The notes: a model not told the origin generated them from the letters alone. A stretch of DNA of 55,891 nucleotides from an uncultured Bacilli bacterium (GCA_947589435.1 CANQBI010000003.1:1-55891), one strand, 5' to 3'; shown: positions 192 to 23,374, counted from the stretch's first letter. Made by a program: numbers and translations.

Positions 192-207
192 GTTATATAA
201 AAATTAT

Positions 208-232
208 TCAAGGTCCCAAGTTGGGACCTTGA
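208..232. repeat. Perfect palindrome TCAAGGTCCCAA-G-TTGGGACCTTGA (CAA-N-TTG family)
   Basis: 12-bp arms with a 1-nt centre; near-identical copy at 4519-4541; lies between convergent genes. Confidence 0.9.
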
Positions 233-245
233 TTTAATTAATTTA

Positions 246-1421
246 TTAACTAACTATCCTATCCGATATTATAAATGGATTACTTTCTGTTCCTTCTCCT
301 GATATGCTTATCTCGGATATTAGATAAAAGACTGGACGAACAGCATCCACACTGCCACCGAAAGGTAAGGAAGTAGTTAGACTCCCTTCTGAGCGCACAA
401 AAAATACATCATCATTATCGATTCCCCTCGACATAGTCCATTCATAATCTTTGCCAGAAAAAGTAGATAAGCCATTTCTTATAAATAACCAGTTTGTTAA
501 ATTCTTATATTCATTTGGACCTGCATTTATATAATCGCTTTGATACATTAATCCTATTTTATGATTATTATTAGATAACGTTTGCTTTTCCTCTGAACTA
601 CCATCCCTCGCCGTAGATCCGCCTACATACCATTTTGGATTACTTATAATACTTTTGTCACCAATAGTTACTGATGCACCTGTCAAAAAAGTTGATTCTA
701 AATATTCAAGTACTTTTGATCCCTCCCAACTTGTACAAGTATAACAAGTACTCCAACCTTGATTATCATTACTTGACGTTGCTTTGATTATCTTTAATTG
801 ATCTTTTACGAGTCCTAAATTTGTATTTACATTTTCTGTTGTTATTCCTATTATTCTATACATGTATGTATTTTTATCAGCTAAACATATATCTTTATTT
901 TCAGTACCAAAACATATGAAGTTATTTATTTTATTACTTGTTACATCACTTTGAGTTCCTACATATCTTAAGAGTTCATCACCTTCATATGCTGTTTTTA
1001 AATATTGTTCTGATGTTGTTTGCTTCATTAATTTTAACACTGTACTTTTTCTCGCAAATTTAAGTGTACAATAGATTGTTCTGTCTGTTGAAATTGTTGC
1101 CTTATTTCCCTCTATATTAAATTGTAATATATCTGTTGTTGGTGTTATTTGATTTCCATTTACATCTTCACATTCACTTCCATAATACTCAAATATATCT
1201 TTATCAGGCCATTTTATTCTTGTGGTATCTTCATCCCACCCAAAACTATCATTTTGTACTTTTATAGCGATTTGCTTACTATCTTTTAAATTTTCTACAA
1301 TTTGAATATTTTCTAATACTTTATTATTTGAATTATTTAATTCTTTTACATAATTATATAATTCATATACTACTCCAATTGTAAATATTACTATTAATAT
1401 ATTTAATACTTTTCTATTCAT
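246..1421 (-). CDS. Membrane-anchored surface protein with a C-terminal DUF6273/C-type-lectin-like domain and a DGR-like variable end
   Basis: 391 aa. N-terminal TM helix, Cys-containing module (WP...EC.D..G...IYCTL.FA), then NNFICFG..YRIIG..KIGLMY.SDY..NWL..EWTMS..VRPVFYL..G.GT..NPF. Paralog of 29550-30665. Confidence 0.75.
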   Translation of the reverse strand: MNRKVLNILIVIFTIGVVYELYNYVKELNNSNNKVLENIQIVENLKDSKQIAIKVQNDSFGWDEDTTRIKWPDKDIFEYYGSECEDVNGNQITPTTDILQFNIEGNKATISTDRTIYCTLKFARKSTVLKLMKQTTSEQYLKTAYEGDELLRYVGTQSDVTSNKINNFICFGTENKDICLADKNTYMYRIIGITTENVNTNLGLVKDQLKIIKATSSNDNQGWSTCYTCTSWEGSKVLEYLESTFLTGASVTIGDKSIISNPKWYVGGSTARDGSSEEKQTLSNNNHKIGLMYQSDYINAGPNEYKNLTNWLFIRNGLSTFSGKDYEWTMSRGIDNDDVFFVRSEGSLTTSLPFGGSVDAVRPVFYLISEISISGEGTESNPFIISDRIVS

Positions 1422-1432
1422 TTTTAATTCTC

Positions 1433-2971
1433 CTAACTCACCTTATCAAAGTATGCATAACAAGTATTCTTACCAGTTGTTGTATATGTAAATCCTTTTG
1501 TTTCATCATATATTATATCTGTTGTAACATTATCTAAATTATCACATTCATAACTAGACATTGTATATCCTTTAGGTATTCTTCCATCTGCAATATATGT
1601 TTTATTATTTTTTATTGTAACTATACTTCCTGTTTCTGATTCTATATAAGTTGTTATTCTTATATCTCCATCTTTTATTTCATATGGTGTTAAATTAAAA
1701 CTATAGTATATTCTGCACACCACTTGATAGGGTTTATCTTCCGAAACATTTATTGTTACTCTTCCATCATCATTTATATAATAATCCGGGTAATTAACTG
1801 TACTACTTTCTTTAGGTATACAATTACTTTTACTTTTATCAAGTTTATAATTATTTTTAACATCTAATGGTGGGATATTATATAAAATATATTGACCGAG
1901 ATTAAAATGGTCTTCAATATAATACATTACATTTATGTCTGAAGTTTTACTTATGCTTGATGTGTCTCCAGTTGTAGAACTAGGTCTTTTGTATAATGCT
2001 GTTTTTTCGATTATAAAGGGATTCTCTTCTGTACCACTTCCGTTTATCTTCACATTACTTCTTAAATACATTACAGGTCTTATTAAATATTTATTGGTAA
2101 CAGACGTATAACTTACATTACCAGATGACGATATATACCAAGAATAATTAATATTATATCTTGACATTGTCCATTCATTACCACTTGAATCACTTGGATA
2201 ATTAGTGTCATTATTGCTTATATGTAACCAATTACCAGTTTTACAACTACTTCCAGAATAACAATTGGCATCATTTCCCATTGCTAAATAATAATCACTT
2301 AAATACATTAAACTAACCTTAGAATTAACGACATTTTCTCCCCAATTTTTCTTTTCATTTTCTAACAAAGTTGTTCCAGTATATGATGAAATACTAATTA
2401 AGTCGCCATAATCATATGCATAATCGGCAATTCCAATCAGCCAATTATTATCTTGTAAATAAGAGTAATCGCTACTTTTTAGAAAATAACTTTTTTTTAA
2501 TCCAATATATAGAGAAGAATTATTCCAAGTTACATCAGATGAACGATTCCAAGAATATGATATATCTAATGCCTCTTTTTTAATTATTTTTAATTCTTGG
2601 GTTTTTGTATCTATTCCTATTATACGATACATATATTTATCTTGATTTTCTATACACTCATTCTTATCTTTTGTTCCAAAACAAATATAATTATTTACGC
2701 TACTTCCTTGGTATCTTCTTAACCTATCATTTCTTACTTGCATATTTTCTCGTGTTTCTAAACCACTATTTTCTTGTGATTCCAAATATTCTTCTATGTC
2801 TTGTGTAGAAAAATTTCCTACTTTGGAAGTAAATATAGGTACTGGTTCCATCTCATAATTATAATAAGCATGAGTATTTCTTAAACAAATAAATAAGACC
2901 ATAACAAAAAAACATATTATTAGATATATTACTTTTATATTTAAGAATTTTTTTAATCTTTCCTTTATCAT
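1433..2971 (-). CDS. Secreted surface protein: SipW-like signal (THA-YYNYE), DUF6273-like domain, C-terminal Cys module
   Basis: 512 aa, RBS AAGAGG. N-terminal block shared with 30681-31500 and 53199-55260; C-terminal module shared with 30681-31289 (NC.P..QVVCR.YY..NTCY.YF). Confidence 0.75.
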   Translation of the reverse strand: MIKERLKKFLNIKVIYLIICFFVMVLFICLRNTHAYYNYEMEPVPIFTSKVGNFSTQDIEEYLESQENSGLETRENMQVRNDRLRRYQGSSVNNYICFGTKDKNECIENQDKYMYRIIGIDTKTQELKIIKKEALDISYSWNRSSDVTWNNSSLYIGLKKSYFLKSSDYSYLQDNNWLIGIADYAYDYGDLISISSYTGTTLLENEKKNWGENVVNSKVSLMYLSDYYLAMGNDANCYSGSSCKTGNWLHISNNDTNYPSDSSGNEWTMSRYNINYSWYISSSGNVSYTSVTNKYLIRPVMYLRSNVKINGSGTEENPFIIEKTALYKRPSSTTGDTSSISKTSDINVMYYIEDHFNLGQYILYNIPPLDVKNNYKLDKSKSNCIPKESSTVNYPDYYINDDGRVTINVSEDKPYQVVCRIYYSFNLTPYEIKDGDIRITTYIESETGSIVTIKNNKTYIADGRIPKGYTMSSYECDNLDNVTTDIIYDETKGFTYTTTGKNTCYAYFDKVS

Positions 2972-3127: not shown

Positions 3128-3352
3128 ATGAATAGATTAAAAGAATTAAGAGAGGATAGAGATTTATATCAAAAAGATATGGCTAAATACTTAAATGTTG
3201 ACCAATCTAATTATAGTAAATATGAATTAGAAAAGATTAACATACCAGTTATCATATTAAAAAAATTAGCCGACTACTATGACACGAGTATCGACTATAT
3301 ACTATATAGAACTGATGAAAGAAAGCCATATAAGAAATCAATAGTTAAATAA
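3128..3352 (+). CDS. XRE-family HTH transcriptional regulator
   Basis: 74 aa, NRLKELRED..L.QKDMAKYLNVDQSNYSKYE...LADYYDTSIDYIL, a typical HTH_3 sequence. Confidence 0.93.
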   Translation: MNRLKELREDRDLYQKDMAKYLNVDQSNYSKYELEKINIPVIILKKLADYYDTSIDYILYRTDERKPYKKSIVK

Positions 3353-3359
3353 TTATATG

Positions 3360-4274
3360 TTATTTAATACTTTTTACGTTGTCTATTAAACTTTTTATAA
3401 CAAATTCATCTTCTAACTTATTAATACTAAAAGTTTTATTCCCTAAATGATTTAAAGATGAACCACAATGATAGATTATTTTATTATCTAGTATTATATA
3501 TCTATCATGAAAAGTATCATTATATTTAACTTCTAAATTATTATATTGTTTATTATATTTTTCAATATCAATATTTTTTAATAATCCATTACTTTTACAT
3601 ATTAATAATACTTTTACTTTTATATCTCTTATCATATCTAAAATACTTTTATCAGCATAATTATCTATTATAACAATACTTCCTTTAGCTTCTTTTAAAA
3701 TATCTACTATTTTAGAATAAGCATCATATATTTGACCATTAAAATAGATTTCATTTACTTTTTTGGTTTCTTTAAAACTATCAAAAGATTCTTTTAATAC
3801 TTTGATATCTTCTGTATTTTTACTTATATTTTCAGCATTAATATACACTTGATTATTTATATGCTTTTGTTCCATTAAGTCATTAGATATATACTTTCTC
3901 ATTAAAACAAAAGCACCCATAATAGCTACACTAACTCGAGATGCAACTTCTGTTCTTAAAATCGTAGCAAGCATTGCAACTCCCTCCTCAGTAAAAACTC
4001 TTATATTATATCTTCTTCCTCCATAATTATCATTTATATAACTTGGATTTTTAATTTGAAACTTTAAATTTTCTTTTTCTTCTTGGGTTAATAAAAAGCA
4101 AAATCTTTCTGGAAATTTATTTATATTTCTACTTACAGCCAAATTAATAGATTTAGTTCCATTTTTACATTGATATAATTCTGCTAAATCGCTATCAAGC
4201 ATTACTTGAACTCCTCTTATATTGTAAATTTTACTAGTTATTTCATTTTCTTTTACAACTAAATTATTCATCAA
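3360..4274 (-). CDS. ORF6N (KilA-N-like) DNA-binding domain protein with a C-terminal PLD-like domain
   Basis: IYNIRGVQVMLDSDLAELY..RNINKFPERFCFLLT.EE..GGRRY..FTEEGVAMLA at the N-terminus; HDRYIILD..YH.GSSLN.LG.K.F at the C-terminus; RBS AGGAGG. Confidence 0.88.
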   Translation of the reverse strand: MMNNLVVKENEITSKIYNIRGVQVMLDSDLAELYQCKNGTKSINLAVSRNINKFPERFCFLLTQEEKENLKFQIKNPSYINDNYGGRRYNIRVFTEEGVAMLATILRTEVASRVSVAIMGAFVLMRKYISNDLMEQKHINNQVYINAENISKNTEDIKVLKESFDSFKETKKVNEIYFNGQIYDAYSKIVDILKEAKGSIVIIDNYADKSILDMIRDIKVKVLLICKSNGLLKNIDIEKYNKQYNNLEVKYNDTFHDRYIILDNKIIYHCGSSLNHLGNKTFSINKLEDEFVIKSLIDNVKSIK

Positions 4275-4298
4275 TCTTTCCTCCTATCTTTTTTGTTC

Positions 4299-4329
4299 AA
4301 CTTGAGGTCGAAATTTTCGACATCAAGTT
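4299..4329. repeat. 31-bp palindrome AACTTGAGGTCGAAA-T-TTTCGACATCAAGTT
   Basis: 15-bp arms with 1 mismatch, just upstream of the ORF6N RBS. Confidence 0.88.
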
Positions 4330-4518
4330 TAAAAATTAATAACTTAATAAAATATAAGCATTAATATCTAGAACTTATTTTTAATTGTTACTGATATATC
4401 AAGTATATTACACGAACTAATATTTGTCAATAACTTTTTGTAACATTTTTGTGAATAACAACTTATTTGCCTTTTATGGTCACAAATTGGAACCGCAATT
4501 TATCATATTAACTTTTTT

Positions 4519-4541
4519 TAAGGTCCCAAATTGGGACCTTA
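4519..4541. repeat. Perfect palindrome TAAGGTCCCAA-A-TTGGGACCTTA
   Basis: 11-bp arms; sister of 208-232. Confidence 0.9.
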
Positions 4542-4592
4542 GAAATTATGAAATGTTTTAATTATCTATAAAATTGTATTTATTTAATTTCC

Positions 4593-4623
4593 AACTTGAG
4601 GTTTCAAATTGAAACCTCAAGTT
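4593..4623. repeat. Perfect 31-bp palindrome AACTTGAGGTTTCAA-A-TTGAAACCTCAAGTT
   Basis: 15-bp perfect arms; identical to 4782-4812 except for the central base. Confidence 0.92.
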
Positions 4624-4781
4624 TTGTTTTTTAATTTAAAATTGTTTATTTTAGTCAAAAAATTTCTCAAAATTTCACATTAAATATTTATTAAAATTGC
4701 CCGCAAAGTCCCATTTCACCTTATAAATCATGTTTTATATTTTTTTTATTATCTGTTACAAATTAAAATTTAGAATTCATT

Positions 4782-4812
4782 AACTTGAGGTTTCAATTTG
4801 AAACCTCAAGTT
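4782..4812. repeat. Perfect 31-bp palindrome AACTTGAGGTTTCAA-T-TTGAAACCTCAAGTT
   Basis: 15-bp perfect arms. Confidence 0.92.
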
Positions 4813-4833
4813 TTATTTTTCATCTTAATTTAT

Positions 4834-4862
4834 TTTTTTGGTCGCAAATTGCGACCAAAAAA
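4834..4862. repeat. Perfect palindrome TTTTTTGGTCGCAA-A-TTGCGACCAAAAAA
   Basis: 14-bp arms with the CAA-N-TTG centre. Confidence 0.88.
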
Positions 4863-4905
4863 CTTCTTTTAAATCATTAAAAAATAACAATAGAATTGTC
4901 TATTG

Positions 4906-12249: not shown

Positions 12250-14187
12250 TTACTCTTTTTCAAATAGAAAGTTCATAATACTTTGCGAAATATAGCGAGT
12301 TATATATACTTTACTATAATTATATTCTTTTAAAACATAAATATTGGGGGCTAAAACTACGACACTATACTTGGGATTATCATAAGGAGCAAAACCCACA
12401 AAGGCGATGGAAGTTGTTTTGGTATCCATCACACCATCGTTGTTCGTATCGATAAATGTTTCACTTGTTCCCGTTTTACCGGCCGGATTATATTCACTTT
12501 TAATATAACTTCTGGCTGTCCCACTAGTGGTAGCTAAATGCATGGCCTCTTTTAATCTTTCTAAATAAACATTATCTAGACTAACATTATTTAAAACGGT
12601 ATAATCATTTTGGAAAATAGTAGTATTTTCATTTTTAATTTCTTTCATAAGTTGCGGTTTTCTTCTTACTCCACTACTGGCAATGGTATTAACATATTGA
12701 AATAATTCCATTGGGGTATACGTGTCATATTGGCCAATACTTAAATTAAGAAGCAAATCACTCGAGGTTAAAGCCCCTTTAATACCTGTTTTTTCGTTAG
12801 GTAAATCTATTCCCGTTAGATTTCCTAAACCATATTCTTTATACATATCCCGGAATTTATTAAAATCATTTTCACTTGTATTTAAAGTCATATTATATTT
12901 ATATTCTTGATTAGTAAGACCTATCGCTATTTTAAATTGGTAATAATTACTACTTTTACTTATCGCCGTTAAATCATTTACTTTACCTAAATTTTTATAA
13001 CTACATTTAATCGGTACTTGATAGAGTTTAATACACCCATCTTGCACACTGGTTCCAATATCAATAACGCCATATTTATAACCCGTGCTAATCGTTGCCA
13101 TTTTAACAACACTTCCCACGGTAAAAGAAGAATTAATTAAATTAGTATTCACACTTTTAAAAGTTTCATCTTCTAAAGAGATTAACTTTTGCCCACTTAA
13201 AGCAATAATTTCGCCCGTATTAGGGTCTCCCACAATACTATAACTTTCACTAAAATAATCGGTATTCTTTCTTTTTTTACCCAAAATAATATTTTCTCTT
13301 AAAATACTTTCTAATTTAAGTTCAACATCGATATCAATCGATAAGACTAAATCATTACCATTCTTAGCTTCTTTTATTACTTTTAATGTATTATCGCTAT
13401 TAACTTCGTATAATTCTTTTTCCCCTTTTAAATAATCTTCATATTCTTTTTCTAAATAACTTAAACCGACTATATCATTTAAATTATACCCTTTTTTTAA
13501 ATATTCTTCTTTTTCTTCTTCGGGAATTCTGCCAATGGACCCAAATAAGTCTTTTAGGGTATCTCCATAATTATAAACTCTTTCCCAAGTAAGTTCCGTA
13601 CTTACCCCTTCAATATTTTTATCTACTAAAGTACTATATTCTAAGTCACTAATATTTTTGGAAATTATCTTTTTTGCATAAGAATAACCTTTGTTCATTA
13701 AATCATAAATAGTCGCGGTCTTCTTCTCTATTTCCTCTAAATTATTAATATCTTCCTCTTTAACTCTTTCTAATTTTAAATTTTCAATATCTTTACTGGT
13801 AATTTTGCGCATCTTTAACTTTTCGTACTCTTCTTCAGTTATTAAATCATCCCCATTATTATGCGTAAGTAACCAATATTTCTTTAAGACATTTTCATTA
13901 ATGGATATATTGATAATTTCTGCGAGTTCCCTTGCTATTTCTAATTCTTTTTGGACAGTTACACCCTTTAATTTGGTATAAAATAAAGTTTTAACTCCCA
14001 TGTTATCCACTAAAACTTTACCATTCCTATCTAAAATTCTTCCTCTTGGAGCACTTTCCCCATAAACATAATTTATCGTTTTATTTTCCAATTTTTTTAA
14101 ACTTTCTTCATGATTATTTAAATTTAAATAAACCATTCTTCCTAAAAGGATTAAAAAGATAATTGTTATTCCTAAATATTTTTTCAT
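12250..14187 (-). CDS. Class B penicillin-binding protein (transpeptidase)
   Basis: APRGRILDRNG dimerisation domain; GSVVK (SxxK), SSN and GKTGT motifs. Probable start is MKKYLG at 14187; the track start is 14217. Confidence 0.92.
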   Translation of the reverse strand: MKKYLGITIIFLILLGRMVYLNLNNHEESLKKLENKTINYVYGESAPRGRILDRNGKVLVDNMGVKTLFYTKLKGVTVQKELEIARELAEIINISINENVLKKYWLLTHNNGDDLITEEEYEKLKMRKITSKDIENLKLERVKEEDINNLEEIEKKTATIYDLMNKGYSYAKKIISKNISDLEYSTLVDKNIEGVSTELTWERVYNYGDTLKDLFGSIGRIPEEEKEEYLKKGYNLNDIVGLSYLEKEYEDYLKGEKELYEVNSDNTLKVIKEAKNGNDLVLSIDIDVELKLESILRENIILGKKRKNTDYFSESYSIVGDPNTGEIIALSGQKLISLEDETFKSVNTNLINSSFTVGSVVKMATISTGYKYGVIDIGTSVQDGCIKLYQVPIKCSYKNLGKVNDLTAISKSSNYYQFKIAIGLTNQEYKYNMTLNTSENDFNKFRDMYKEYGLGNLTGIDLPNEKTGIKGALTSSDLLLNLSIGQYDTYTPMELFQYVNTIASSGVRRKPQLMKEIKNENTTIFQNDYTVLNNVSLDNVYLERLKEAMHLATTSGTARSYIKSEYNPAGKTGTSETFIDTNNDGVMDTKTTSIAFVGFAPYDNPKYSVVVLAPNIYVLKEYNYSKVYITRYISQSIMNFLFEKE

Positions 14188-22982: not shown

Positions 22983-23257
22983 TCTCTCACTCCATTTCTA
23001 ATTTTTTTACAGAAAATTTATAAAATATAATAAATATAATTATAATTATCCATAATCTAATTATAATCTTAAATGGTCATTTTATCAAGGCAAAAAGTTT
23101 AATAAATAACTATTATTTAAATTTATTTTATTTTTAATTAATATTTTCTATTTCTTTAACCTTTAATTATGGTTCATTTACAAGTTTTAAATTTCAACCG
23201 ATGACAAATTGTCACCAATTCATTTTTTATTTTTTAGATTTCAAATTTATTGATTTC

Positions 23258-23282
23258 AGATGGTGACAAATTGTCACCATCT
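23258..23282. repeat. Perfect palindrome AGATGGTGACAA-A-TTGTCACCATCT (CAA-N-TTG family)
   Basis: 12-bp arms; a shorter sister, TGACAA-A-TTGTCA, is at 23202-23214. Confidence 0.88.
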
Positions 23283-23374
23283 TAATTTTTATCTCTCTTT
23301 TAATAAATTTATTATATGCAAATTTTTAATTATTGCGAACAAAAGTATTTTAAAACTTTTTTTAAAAAGAAGAT

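Follow-up and report, generated by a model that had tools for sequence, protein, structure and literature searches.

The DNA analyzed here (the window, 55,891 nucleotides, GCA_947589435.1, CANQBI010000003.1:1-55891) belongs to an AT-rich metagenome-assembled genome (MAG) of an uncultured gut Bacilli bacterium, and the sequencing runs that hold it are rabbit-gut metagenomes. It contains a gene for a protein with an ORF6N domain and a phospholipase D (PLD)-like domain, and the region of roughly 630 bp upstream of this gene is occupied by short palindromes. The six upstream palindromes, three dispersed copies elsewhere in the window and a decayed segment within the gene are one DNA palindrome family with the consensus (A)AACTTGAGGTC-R-CAA-W-TTG-Y-GACCTCAAGTT(T). 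The family reaches far beyond the window: a perfect palindrome of 25-33 bp is found at one fixed spot in nearly every ORF6N-domain gene of bacteria, archaea and phages. The gene and the palindrome copies of the window are listed below; loci used for comparison are cited as L with a number, among them L081, a contig of GCA_947628485.1 that is syntenic with the window.

3360..4274, minus strand: ORF6N + PLD-like gene, 303-304 residues, likely start ATG at 4271
4040..4070, minus strand: decayed in-gene member, NLKFQIKNPS, residues 69-78, inside the ORF6N domain, about 10 of 15 pairs left
4299..4329, no strand: palindrome 1, AACTTGAGGTCGAAATTTTCGACATCAAGTT, 31 nt, one mismatch, in the predicted 5' untranslated region (5'UTR), between promoter and ribosome-binding site (RBS)
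4478..4494, no strand: degenerate member, GGTCACAAATTGGAACC, without hairpin folding, L081 orthologue imperfect too
4515..4545, no strand: palindrome, TTTTTAAGGTCCCAAATTGGGACCTTAGAAA, core 4522-4538 perfect, L081 orthologue with a compensated C:G to A:T change
4593..4623, no strand: perfect 31-nt palindrome, AACTTGAGGTTTCAAATTGAAACCTCAAGTT, L081 orthologue GGTCAC..GTGACC with two compensated pairs
4782..4812, no strand: perfect 31-nt palindrome, exact reverse complement of the 4593 copy, differing at the central base only (T)
4832..4864, no strand: palindrome with T-run and A-run outer arms, TTTTTTGGTCGCAAATTGCGACCAAAAAA, core perfect, in the form of the in-gene frame b (FLVxNCDQK)
206..234, no strand: dispersed member at a distance of 3 kb from the ORF6N gene, with convergent genes on either side, L081 orthologue (13154) with a compensated change
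23200-23216 (one mismatch) and 23255-23285, no strand: a dispersed pair of the GTGACAAATTGTCAC type, between recA and rny

A sequence-only reading of the window had described five intact upstream palindromes and a degenerate one within about 630 bp, and all of their coordinates hold. The peptides it read from them as codons (NLRSKFSTSS, NLRFQIETSS, NLRFQFETSS and LVANCDQ) are correct by direct reading, two of them also being the starts of open reading frames (ORFs), and the resemblance it noted between the in-gene NLKFQIKNPS segment and the palindrome at 4593 amounts to 24 complementary positions out of 31 (77%) over 4040-4070. To its list are added the copies at 206-234, 23200-23216 and 23255-23285, all far from the ORF6N gene. 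The core GGTNNCAAWTTGNNACC, allowing at most 2 mismatches, occurs nine times in the window against 0.7 expected occurrences, and none of 100 shuffled sequences reached nine. Calculated as single-stranded DNA, the intact copies form hairpins of -10.5 to -13.8 kcal/mol (z -4.3 to -8.3), and the in-gene copy at 4040-4070 does not fold (-0.7 kcal/mol, z +0.55). The upstream copies are spaced irregularly, 44-294 nt apart. The best promoter-like match, TTGACA-17-TATACT at 4402..4430 on the minus strand (11 of 12 positions), is kept in L081 and L001; given a promoter at 4430-4402, the 4299 copy falls in the 5'UTR, directly before the RBS. A symmetric site thus lies where an operator would be expected, at 4299-4329 between the conserved promoter and the RBS. 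A CRISPR array was considered and rejected, as the repeats differ in their stems, their spacing varies between 44 and 294 nt and the spacers are kept between relatives.

The in-gene palindrome was followed at the DNA level in 80 loci from Bacilli, Clostridia, Bacteroidota, Verrucomicrobia, Proteobacteria, the candidate phyla radiation (CPR) and several archaeal groups, isolate genomes included; Chryseobacterium sp. T20, Pedobacter chinensis JDX94 and Epilithonimonas mollis DSM 18016 are among the isolates that carry the gene. In most of the 80 loci the best palindrome before the FTEQG anchor comprises 25-33 nt with a stem of 9-21 bp. Within the 45-codon segment that holds the palindrome, the longest perfect stem measures 13 bp in the median, compared with 4 bp in other segments of the same genes (78 loci), and perfect stems of at least 9 bp occur in 57 of 78 palindrome segments versus 1 of 316 control segments. 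In phages and integrative elements, ORF6N-only genes, which have no PLD domain, carry the palindrome too. T-6, A-2, T+2 and A+6, counted from the center, are invariant in the family, and an inner block of 2-3 nt varies freely. In the 120 best homologues, the peptide encoded at this place is of two types, the first represented by NLRSQIVT, NLRFQIET, NLKSQIGT and LRSKFSTSS and the second by FLVANCDQK, FLVTDCDQK and FLVKNFDQK; the variable insert that the sequence-only reading had named for ORF6N proteins (LRSQFATS or LVANCDQ) is indeed present in most of these 120. In the structural model of the window protein, the palindrome peptide (residues 69-78) runs from the end of the helix 63-70 into residues 71-90, which are mostly coil (mean predicted local distance difference test score, pLDDT, 54) up to the strand 91-93, and its location in a low-confidence coil stretch makes it a permissive host for a DNA signal. 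The intragenic palindrome is an ancestral, family-wide feature that is intact in about three-quarters of the homologues tested. The window gene, with its decayed in-gene copy, is exceptional in this respect; L025 and other loci also lack the palindrome.

Several observations on the coding copies stand by themselves. In some genes the palindrome is doubled in tandem and in frame, the two copies being as a rule 36 nt (12 codons) apart (L055 3924-3990, L043, L062, L064, L068, L074, L002, L085, L125). Their outer stems differ, their inner stems are often alike (e.g. LRSQIVTLDNKNLKSQIVTSS), and they have independent origins in several phyla. About 35 nt past the family palindrome, L009 (4200-4225) and L010 (4242-4267) have a second, unrelated near-palindrome, AAGGTAAATATTCTAAATTTTTACCTT (KQGKYSKFLPY), which in two related genes may be due to chance. 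Frequently, ORF6N-PLD genes come as tandem or nearby paralogues or have truncated N-terminal copies immediately upstream or downstream (L004, L005, L007, L012, L026, L042, L070, L081), and some of the proteins are mosaics. In-gene palindromes of frame b that resemble the 4832-4864 copy of the window occur in L016 and L026.

The pairing within the palindrome is preserved independently of the encoded peptide. In 84 aligned in-gene copies, 88% of the paired cells are complementary versus 70% in shuffles, double-sided (compensatory) changes are found in 13 of 16 stem pairs (260 cells versus 87), and G:U is nearly absent. When the peptides are recoded according to the codon usage of their gene, 5.9 of 12 pairs are formed, compared with the 11.4 observed, and for 95% of the palindromes less than 1% of the synonymous recodings reach the observed pairing. 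Synonymous sites take part in the pairing, as in the change from AGG..ACC to AAG..ACT or from TTG..TCA to TTA..TTA. Moreover, the palindrome is read in two frames: its center is at codon position 1 in 80 cases (N-L-R-S-Q-I-x-T-S-S) and at codon position 2 in 5 (F-L-V-x-N-C-D-Q-K). Among the stem mismatches, 21 are G:T or T:G and 27 are A:C or C:A; since G:T is no more common than A:C, wobble is not tolerated and the constraint is strand-symmetric. Codon choice and compensatory changes of a strictly Watson-Crick kind preserve the in-gene copy, at the level of the DNA and not of the protein. A frameshift-stimulating hairpin was dropped by inspection, as a consistent slippery site and spacer are missing and each gene stays in one frame.

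The association of the element with ORF6N genes was determined by three approaches. A rule-based scan (T-6, A-2, T+2, A+6, no fewer than 10 of 12 pairs and 3 or more G:C pairs) of 1.13 Mb of loci recovered 256 copies, compared with 1.4 in shuffles, of which 165 were in ORF6N-homologous coding DNA and 91 outside; 62 of 77 distinct outside copies are intergenic although ORFs make up 79% of the DNA. In a detection free of such rules, 54 of 77 long odd-centered palindromes outside ORF6N coding DNA proved to be family members, and these non-coding members retain the GGTC.CAA consensus without any coding constraint. In an unbiased census, the exact 17-mer GGTCGCAAWTTGCGACC was found 128 times in metagenome contigs. 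Inside ORF6N coding DNA, at profile column 70-73, were 87 of these occurrences, and a further 25 were at most 333 nt away from an ORF6N gene, 15 of them upstream and mostly at 23-190 nt. Hence 112 of 128 (88%) were in or beside an ORF6N gene, and 16 were on stretches with no detectable ORF6N gene. Extragenic copies upstream of the genes are mostly located 23-190 nt before the start codons, and in one group of prophages or integrative elements a second copy is fixed 55 nt before the domain match, just after the integrase gene. Most genomes have either none or one extragenic copy, and one or more stand just upstream of many ORF6N genes; arrays of 3-11 copies occur in a few lineages of gut Bacilli and Clostridia, that of the window included. 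Four upstream palindromes of L020 (3497-3884) follow each other with a period of 112-122 nt, and to the eye two of the spacers look similar; possibly the palindrome and about 85 nt form a unit repeated in tandem, in contrast to the irregularly spaced copies of the window.

How an array is kept can be seen in the comparison with L081, which shares with the window the order of genes with DNA_gyraseB and DNA_topoisoIV domains, ylbD, a 73-residue gene at the position of ylbE, the intergenic region, the ORF6N gene and a helix-turn-helix (HTH) gene. The orthologous region of L081 has 7 copies, and about 11 copies occupy the 900-bp upstream region of a second ORF6N paralogue. The window gene and both L081 genes have in common the layout of promoter, leader, palindrome and RBS; the leader palindromes differ. 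The aligned intergenic regions of the window and L081 are 76% identical overall, with copies at orthologous positions, and the inner stems have undergone compensated double changes (e.g. GGTTTCAA..TTGAAACC versus GGTCACAG..TGTGACC). Of 72 orthologous stem pairs, 58 are unchanged, 9 show compensated double changes and 4 are changed on one side. Compensated substitutions preserve the upstream array of the window, whose in-gene copy, by contrast, is decayed. Three genes represent the lineages with the largest arrays; in two of them (the window gene and gene 1 of L081) the palindrome inside the gene is decayed, and in the third it is imperfect (10 of 12 pairs). L081 also contains a 190-nt duplication that carries two palindromes, which indicates that arrays grow by segmental duplication. 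The region was recovered from rabbit-gut DNA runs as Logan contigs, whose unitigs end at the palindromes; the apparent joints result from cross-mapping of paralogues, for example of a frame-b paralogue onto the 4833-4862 copy. A search for RNA runs that hold the region found none; only DNA assemblies contain the sequence.

Related domains carry palindromes of their own. RhuM+Fic genes that adjoin some ORF6N genes have CAACTGTTGCAAAATTTGCAACAGTT at the equivalent place (STVAKFATVQ), and adjoining Bro-N genes have AAACCGTGACAAATTGTCACGGTTT (ETVTNCHGLK); scans of viral contigs yielded about 18 distinct loci each of the Bro-N type and the RhuM type. The type of the in-gene site follows the branch of the superfamily of binding domains to which the gene belongs, with GGTCRCAA in ORF6N, CGTGACAA in some Bro-N and GTTGCAAA in RhuM genes. 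The GTGACAAATTGTCAC type at 23200-23285 of the window is the type found inside some Bro-N genes, and no Bro-N, RhuM or ORF6N gene was present among the neighbors checked near 23200-23285. Phage ORFs of 156-283 residues in viral contigs L297, L303, L320, L323, L341, L347 and L373 contain AAAGGGTGACAAWTTGTCACCCTTT at residues 95-100 (WIKGDKLSPF) and may represent a further branch with an in-gene palindrome.

The protein encoded by the window gene (303 residues) is a member of the ORF6N family (Pfam PF10543, KilA-N superfamily; residues 14-105 span profile positions 1-86 of 86 with E 3.8e-27 and 94.9 bits, the cutoff being 27.8). It is also a full-length member of the phage defense candidate PDC-S05, as its residues 5-301 match positions 10-301 of 306 of the PADLOC profile PDLC04869 with E 1.1e-88. 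The Pfam match to MIT_C (PLD-like) at residues 242-286 is weak (21 bits, cutoff 25). The C-terminal part contains the motif H255-D-R257-x4-D262-x7-G270-S-S272-L-N274 (HxR-x4-D-x7-GSxxN); among 30 homologues, D256, R257, G270, S272 and N274 do not vary, and H255 and D262 hardly do. Compared with the PLD motif HxK-x4-D-x6-GSxN, the window protein has R in the place of K and a single motif per chain, so that a dimer would be needed for putative catalysis. According to an AlphaFold2 model (pLDDT 77), the protein consists of an N-terminal alpha/beta domain, a 42-residue helix (residues 108-149) and a C-terminal alpha/beta domain. Foldseek related the whole chain to the archaeal chromatin protein TrmBL2 of the TrmB family (E 9e-7) and the C-terminal domain to PLD1/2, Zucchini, MITD1, SauUSI and PLD3/4 (E 2e-5 to 2e-3), which identifies it as a PLD fold. 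A PDC-S05 representative that was assayed in E. coli lowered plating of T7 and T5 about 1000-fold and protected from T4 too; it is described with a RhuM domain, and DNA elements are not mentioned (bioRxiv 10.1101/2024.09.26.614923). The window gene, by contrast, has an ORF6N domain and sits among housekeeping genes (YlbD-like and YlbE-like genes, in a parE/parC, ylbD/E setting).

On its other side, the ORF6N gene is convergent with a gene for an XRE-type HTH protein of 74 residues (3128-3352, plus strand), which ends 8 nt away. A gene of this type has the same position in L081-L083 and gives weak PADLOC matches to HTH_VI, RmrA and capH; it might act together with the ORF6N-PLD gene or regulate it. 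The HTH gene is adjoined by two ORFs (246-1421, minus strand, 391 residues, and 1433-2971, minus strand, 512 residues) for which no match was found in Pfam, NCBIfam or PADLOC; at the matching position L081 has a gene of 604 residues without a Pfam match. An invertible promoter between palindromes was also considered; all four promoters seen share the same orientation. A recombination hotspot at the palindrome was considered because N-terminal and C-terminal identities disagree in some protein pairs, such as P0053 and P0072, whose N-termini are 61% and whose remainders are 92-96% identical; the switch lies in the conserved FTEQGVAML stretch and not at the palindrome.

We tentatively propose that the DNA-binding ORF6N domain recognizes the palindrome as its cognate symmetric site and that this site serves autoregulation, an explanation that we regard as possible rather than probable. 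A site for the gene's own product is suggested by the family-wide in-gene palindrome, the constraint on the DNA, the association with the gene family, the operator-like placement, the upkeep of arrays, the branch-specific site type and the architecture of the protein. Proteins of the TrmB family are dimeric DNA binders, and the ORF6N protein (KilA-N superfamily) would likewise bind the palindrome as a dimer, formed through the long helix. Bound to the copy in the 5'UTR, to copies further upstream and to an intact intragenic copy, it would repress its own, possibly toxic, gene by acting as a roadblock, by looping or by both. The site in a segment that encodes a permissive loop would keep binder and site together through frequent recombination and transfer. 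The inner triplet, self-complementary yet free to vary, could mean that the site is read as an extruded hairpin or cruciform, or that positions without contact were symmetrized by intrastrand template switching. An autoregulatory operator array echoed inside the gene was among the three alternatives of the sequence-only reading and is the best supported of them. The link between the in-gene and the upstream copies is real, the placement is operator-like and the consensus is kept in non-coding copies; what has to be reversed is the direction, because the in-gene copy is the family-wide feature.

A number of points weigh against this proposal. For the in-gene palindromes of Bro-N and RhuM genes no upstream partner was found in 18 + 18 loci, which weakens a pure promoter-operator form: the conserved core function cannot require a promoter-proximal site, and the in-gene copy is the conserved core to which upstream copies and arrays were added as an ORF6N-specific elaboration. 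In-gene copies are not specially similar to local extragenic copies, which argues against each protein reading exactly its own inner triplet. A dimer on duplex DNA does not by itself explain why inner positions without contact are complementary, for which a hairpin or cruciform is the better fit, and arrays of up to 11 copies with differing inner stems would be unusual for operators. The window protein is intact despite the loss of its in-gene copy. The conserved HxR..D..GSxxN motif suggests catalysis and not mere regulation. Lastly, a sequence search of the PDB yielded no informative relative and none solved with DNA.

The competing explanation that the palindrome functions as a DNA hairpin or cruciform, either as a point of breakage, recombination and duplication or as the substrate of the fused nuclease, is unlikely in our estimation. 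In the PLD fusions, according to this scenario, the protein would cut or copy hairpins and seed arrays, similar to the repetitive extragenic palindromic (REP) sequences and their associated tyrosine transposases (RAYT). A stem predicts the strict Watson-Crick covariation and the free inner sequence that are seen, the hairpins are stable (-10 to -14 kcal/mol), gene fragments begin or end at the palindrome in L038, L078, L079 and L080, in-frame tandem doublets about 36 nt apart are seen in at least 8 independent loci, the L081 duplication includes two palindromes, and copies flank the gene as REPs flank RAYT genes. PLD nucleases form a covalent phosphohistidine intermediate, and BfiI can catalyze strand transfer, which likewise fits this explanation. 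However, ORF6N-only, Bro-N and RhuM+Fic proteins carry the palindrome without a nuclease domain, and there is little dispersal: of about 10 copies in 56 kb, only 3 are distant from the gene, and 88% of the census falls in or beside ORF6N genes. The sole recent expansion of an array that was seen is a segmental duplication and not a transposition, the mosaic breakpoint that was examined is not at the palindrome, and the conserved GGT, CAA, TTG and ACC indicate recognition of sequence and not of structure alone. A broader proposal, to which we assign a similarly low likelihood, is that ORF6N, the N-terminal domain of RhuM and part of Bro-N, as one superfamily of mobile DNA-binding domains, share an ancient self-complementary element, placed in a segment encoding a permissive loop, that would be the domain's own recognition or processing site. 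The gene would then be a self-contained module of binder and site, from which the fusion to a PLD nuclease would spawn local arrays of hairpins; the hairpin or cruciform form would be the functional one, and the palindrome and the protein would be a new partnership distinct from REP/RAYT.

A role in the RNA, as terminators, attenuators or hairpins that stabilize or process the mRNA in the leader and the message, is distinctly improbable. The 4299 copy is predicted from the promoter to be transcribed as part of the 5'UTR, and both 206-234 and the L081 copy at 13154 lie between convergent genes. Three of the six upstream copies match a terminator pattern with T-rich tails, but on the plus strand only, which is antisense to both flanking genes, and the rest lack a T-tract. 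The type with T6 and A6 arms has an A-run and not a U-run after the stem, most in-gene copies have a tail of at most 3 U, a search of Rfam found no family that matches the palindromes, and the mismatches (G:U 21 versus A:C 27) reveal a strand-symmetric constraint. An equally small chance is given to the view that the palindromes are largely non-functional and perpetuate themselves, intrastrand template switching perfecting the inverted repeats and the extragenic copies being by-products of duplication. Quasipalindrome correction is an established mutational process, complementarity is perfect even at freely varying positions, and the window gene, L025 and others function without an in-gene copy. 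Against this, specific bases are conserved across phyla in non-coding copies, the in-gene position is fixed from Archaea to Bacteroidota and phages, the stems are more conserved than the surrounding intergenic DNA of the window and L081, the upstream copies are placed non-randomly, and the decay at 4040-4070 and 4478-4494 demonstrates that perfection is not automatic. The sequence-only reading had also proposed a reservoir of cassettes, in which extragenic donors are converted into the gene, altering 2-4 residues of the DNA-binding domain (S..V, S..A, F..E, S..G, C..G) and thereby diversifying the specificity of a defense protein. No part of the domain varies more than the encoded residues, which change in coupled pairs, arrays hold many different inner stems beside the gene, and intergenic copies have the exact form of in-gene copies of other genomes, in both frames. 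The comparison that the sequence-only reading had itself suggested went the other way. In-gene copies were no closer to local than to foreign extragenic copies in the inner triplet (1.33 versus 1.48 of 3; 1418 of 2000 permutations do as well) or in the outer arms (3.06 versus 2.80 of 5; 285 of 2000), and only 7 of 29 share the inner triplet with any local copy. Most genomes have none or one extragenic copy to donate, the lineages with the largest arrays are those with decayed or imperfect in-gene copies, and the model places the peptide at a helix end leading into low-confidence coil and not in a structured recognition element, so that the reservoir must be considered very unlikely. Least likely of all is that the upstream palindromes are relics of deleted ORF6N copies or selfish insertions like the Rickettsia palindromic elements (RPEs). 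Tandem paralogues and truncated copies are common (L004, L005, L007, L012, L021, L026, L038, L078), some extragenic palindromes end recognizable gene fragments (L038, L078), and a relic origin, which the sequence-only reading had named as the outcome should its proposals fail, does fit some copies in L038, L078, L079 and L021. It does not fit the window, where a six-frame hmmsearch with the family profile found no ORF6N coding remnant in the 630 bp upstream of the gene, where six copies in 630 bp are too dense for six genes of 900 bp, and where orthologous copies evolve by compensated changes. The selfish in-frame insert, the third of the earlier alternatives, finds no support, given coding copies that are restricted to one homologous position of one superfamily, arrays that arise through segmental duplication and the 88% of the census in or beside ORF6N genes.

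Sites inside the gene of their own binder are known, such as the lambda ori iterons in gene O and the pac sites of P22 and P1 in the small-terminase genes, as are intragenic auxiliary operators (lac O2 in lacZ, gal OI in galE). In common with these the ORF6N palindrome is a symmetric site in coding DNA that, on the autoregulatory explanation, would be bound by the product of the gene and inherited with it, possibly acting as a roadblock or in a loop with an upstream copy. Unlike lambda ori, pac and lac O2, which are single systems, it keeps to the same homologous codon position throughout a domain family that spans Bacteria, Archaea and phages, and it is a strict palindrome of 25-33 bp with stem covariation and two reading frames, a candidate binding site. 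REP/RAYT systems (REPtrons) resemble it in that short extragenic palindromes, often clustered or between convergent genes, lie on both sides of a gene for a DNA-processing protein, with whose family they are linked. It does not belong to them, as an HUH/Y1 transposase is absent and a KilA-N-type domain, fused or not to a PLD-like domain, takes its place, as the 56 kb contain about 10 copies, 6 of which share a single intergenic region, and not hundreds of dispersed ones, and as the palindromes are perfect, lack the GTAG/CGTC head and have one copy inside the gene. RPEs are likewise palindromic DNA translated in frame in a tolerant surface region. They measure about 100-150 bp and occur in many unrelated genes of one genus, in contrast to the 25-33 bp of the ORF6N element at one position of a superfamily across phyla; no insertion polymorphism was seen, and coding copies are found only at the homologous position of ORF6N, Bro-N and RhuM genes, which excludes the element from the RPEs. 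DNA uptake sequences (uptake signal sequences, USS, and DNA uptake sequences, DUS) are genome-wide, species-specific and spread over all genes. They share with the ORF6N element a DNA signal over coding sequence in different frames, and often form paired inverted repeats that double as terminators; the ORF6N element, unlike them, tracks one gene family across phyla.

With TrmB, TrmBL1/Tgr and TrmBL2 the window protein has in common the N-terminal DNA-binding domain, the long helix and the PLD-like C-terminal domain (Foldseek E 9e-7). The DNA-binding domain of TrmB is a winged helix, that of the window protein has the ORF6N/KilA-N fold, and the PLD-like domain of TrmB is without the HKD-type motif that is kept in the family of the window protein. 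TrmBL1/Tgr of Thermococcales binds the palindrome TATCAC-N5-GTGATA. One branch of ORF6N palindromes reads GGTATCACAAAATGTGATACC, which contains TATCAC-N5-GTGATA (L069, L072, L076, L080, L127-L154). The best structural match of the window protein is, moreover, TrmBL2. Because the DNA-binding domains differ, this overlap with the TrmBL1/Tgr motif is probably a coincidence.

A description of the element was found neither in the literature searched on ORF6N, PDC-S05 and KilA-N/Bro-N/RhuM palindromes nor by way of the sequences themselves. ORF6N, Bro-N and RhuM are among the most common modules of phages, integrative elements and defense islands, and we know of no DNA target for them; the palindrome is a concrete candidate for such a target. 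It explains a protein motif that is conserved and at the same time variable (LRSQIVTS / LVTNCD / VAKFAT) as the shadow of a constraint on the DNA, a point of consequence for alignments, for domain models and for analyses of selection in these families. It also offers a lead on how PDC-S05, a widespread candidate defense nuclease, may be regulated or targeted. Finally, the element provides a clean natural example in which selection at the level of the nucleic acid overrides selection at the level of the protein, in two reading frames.

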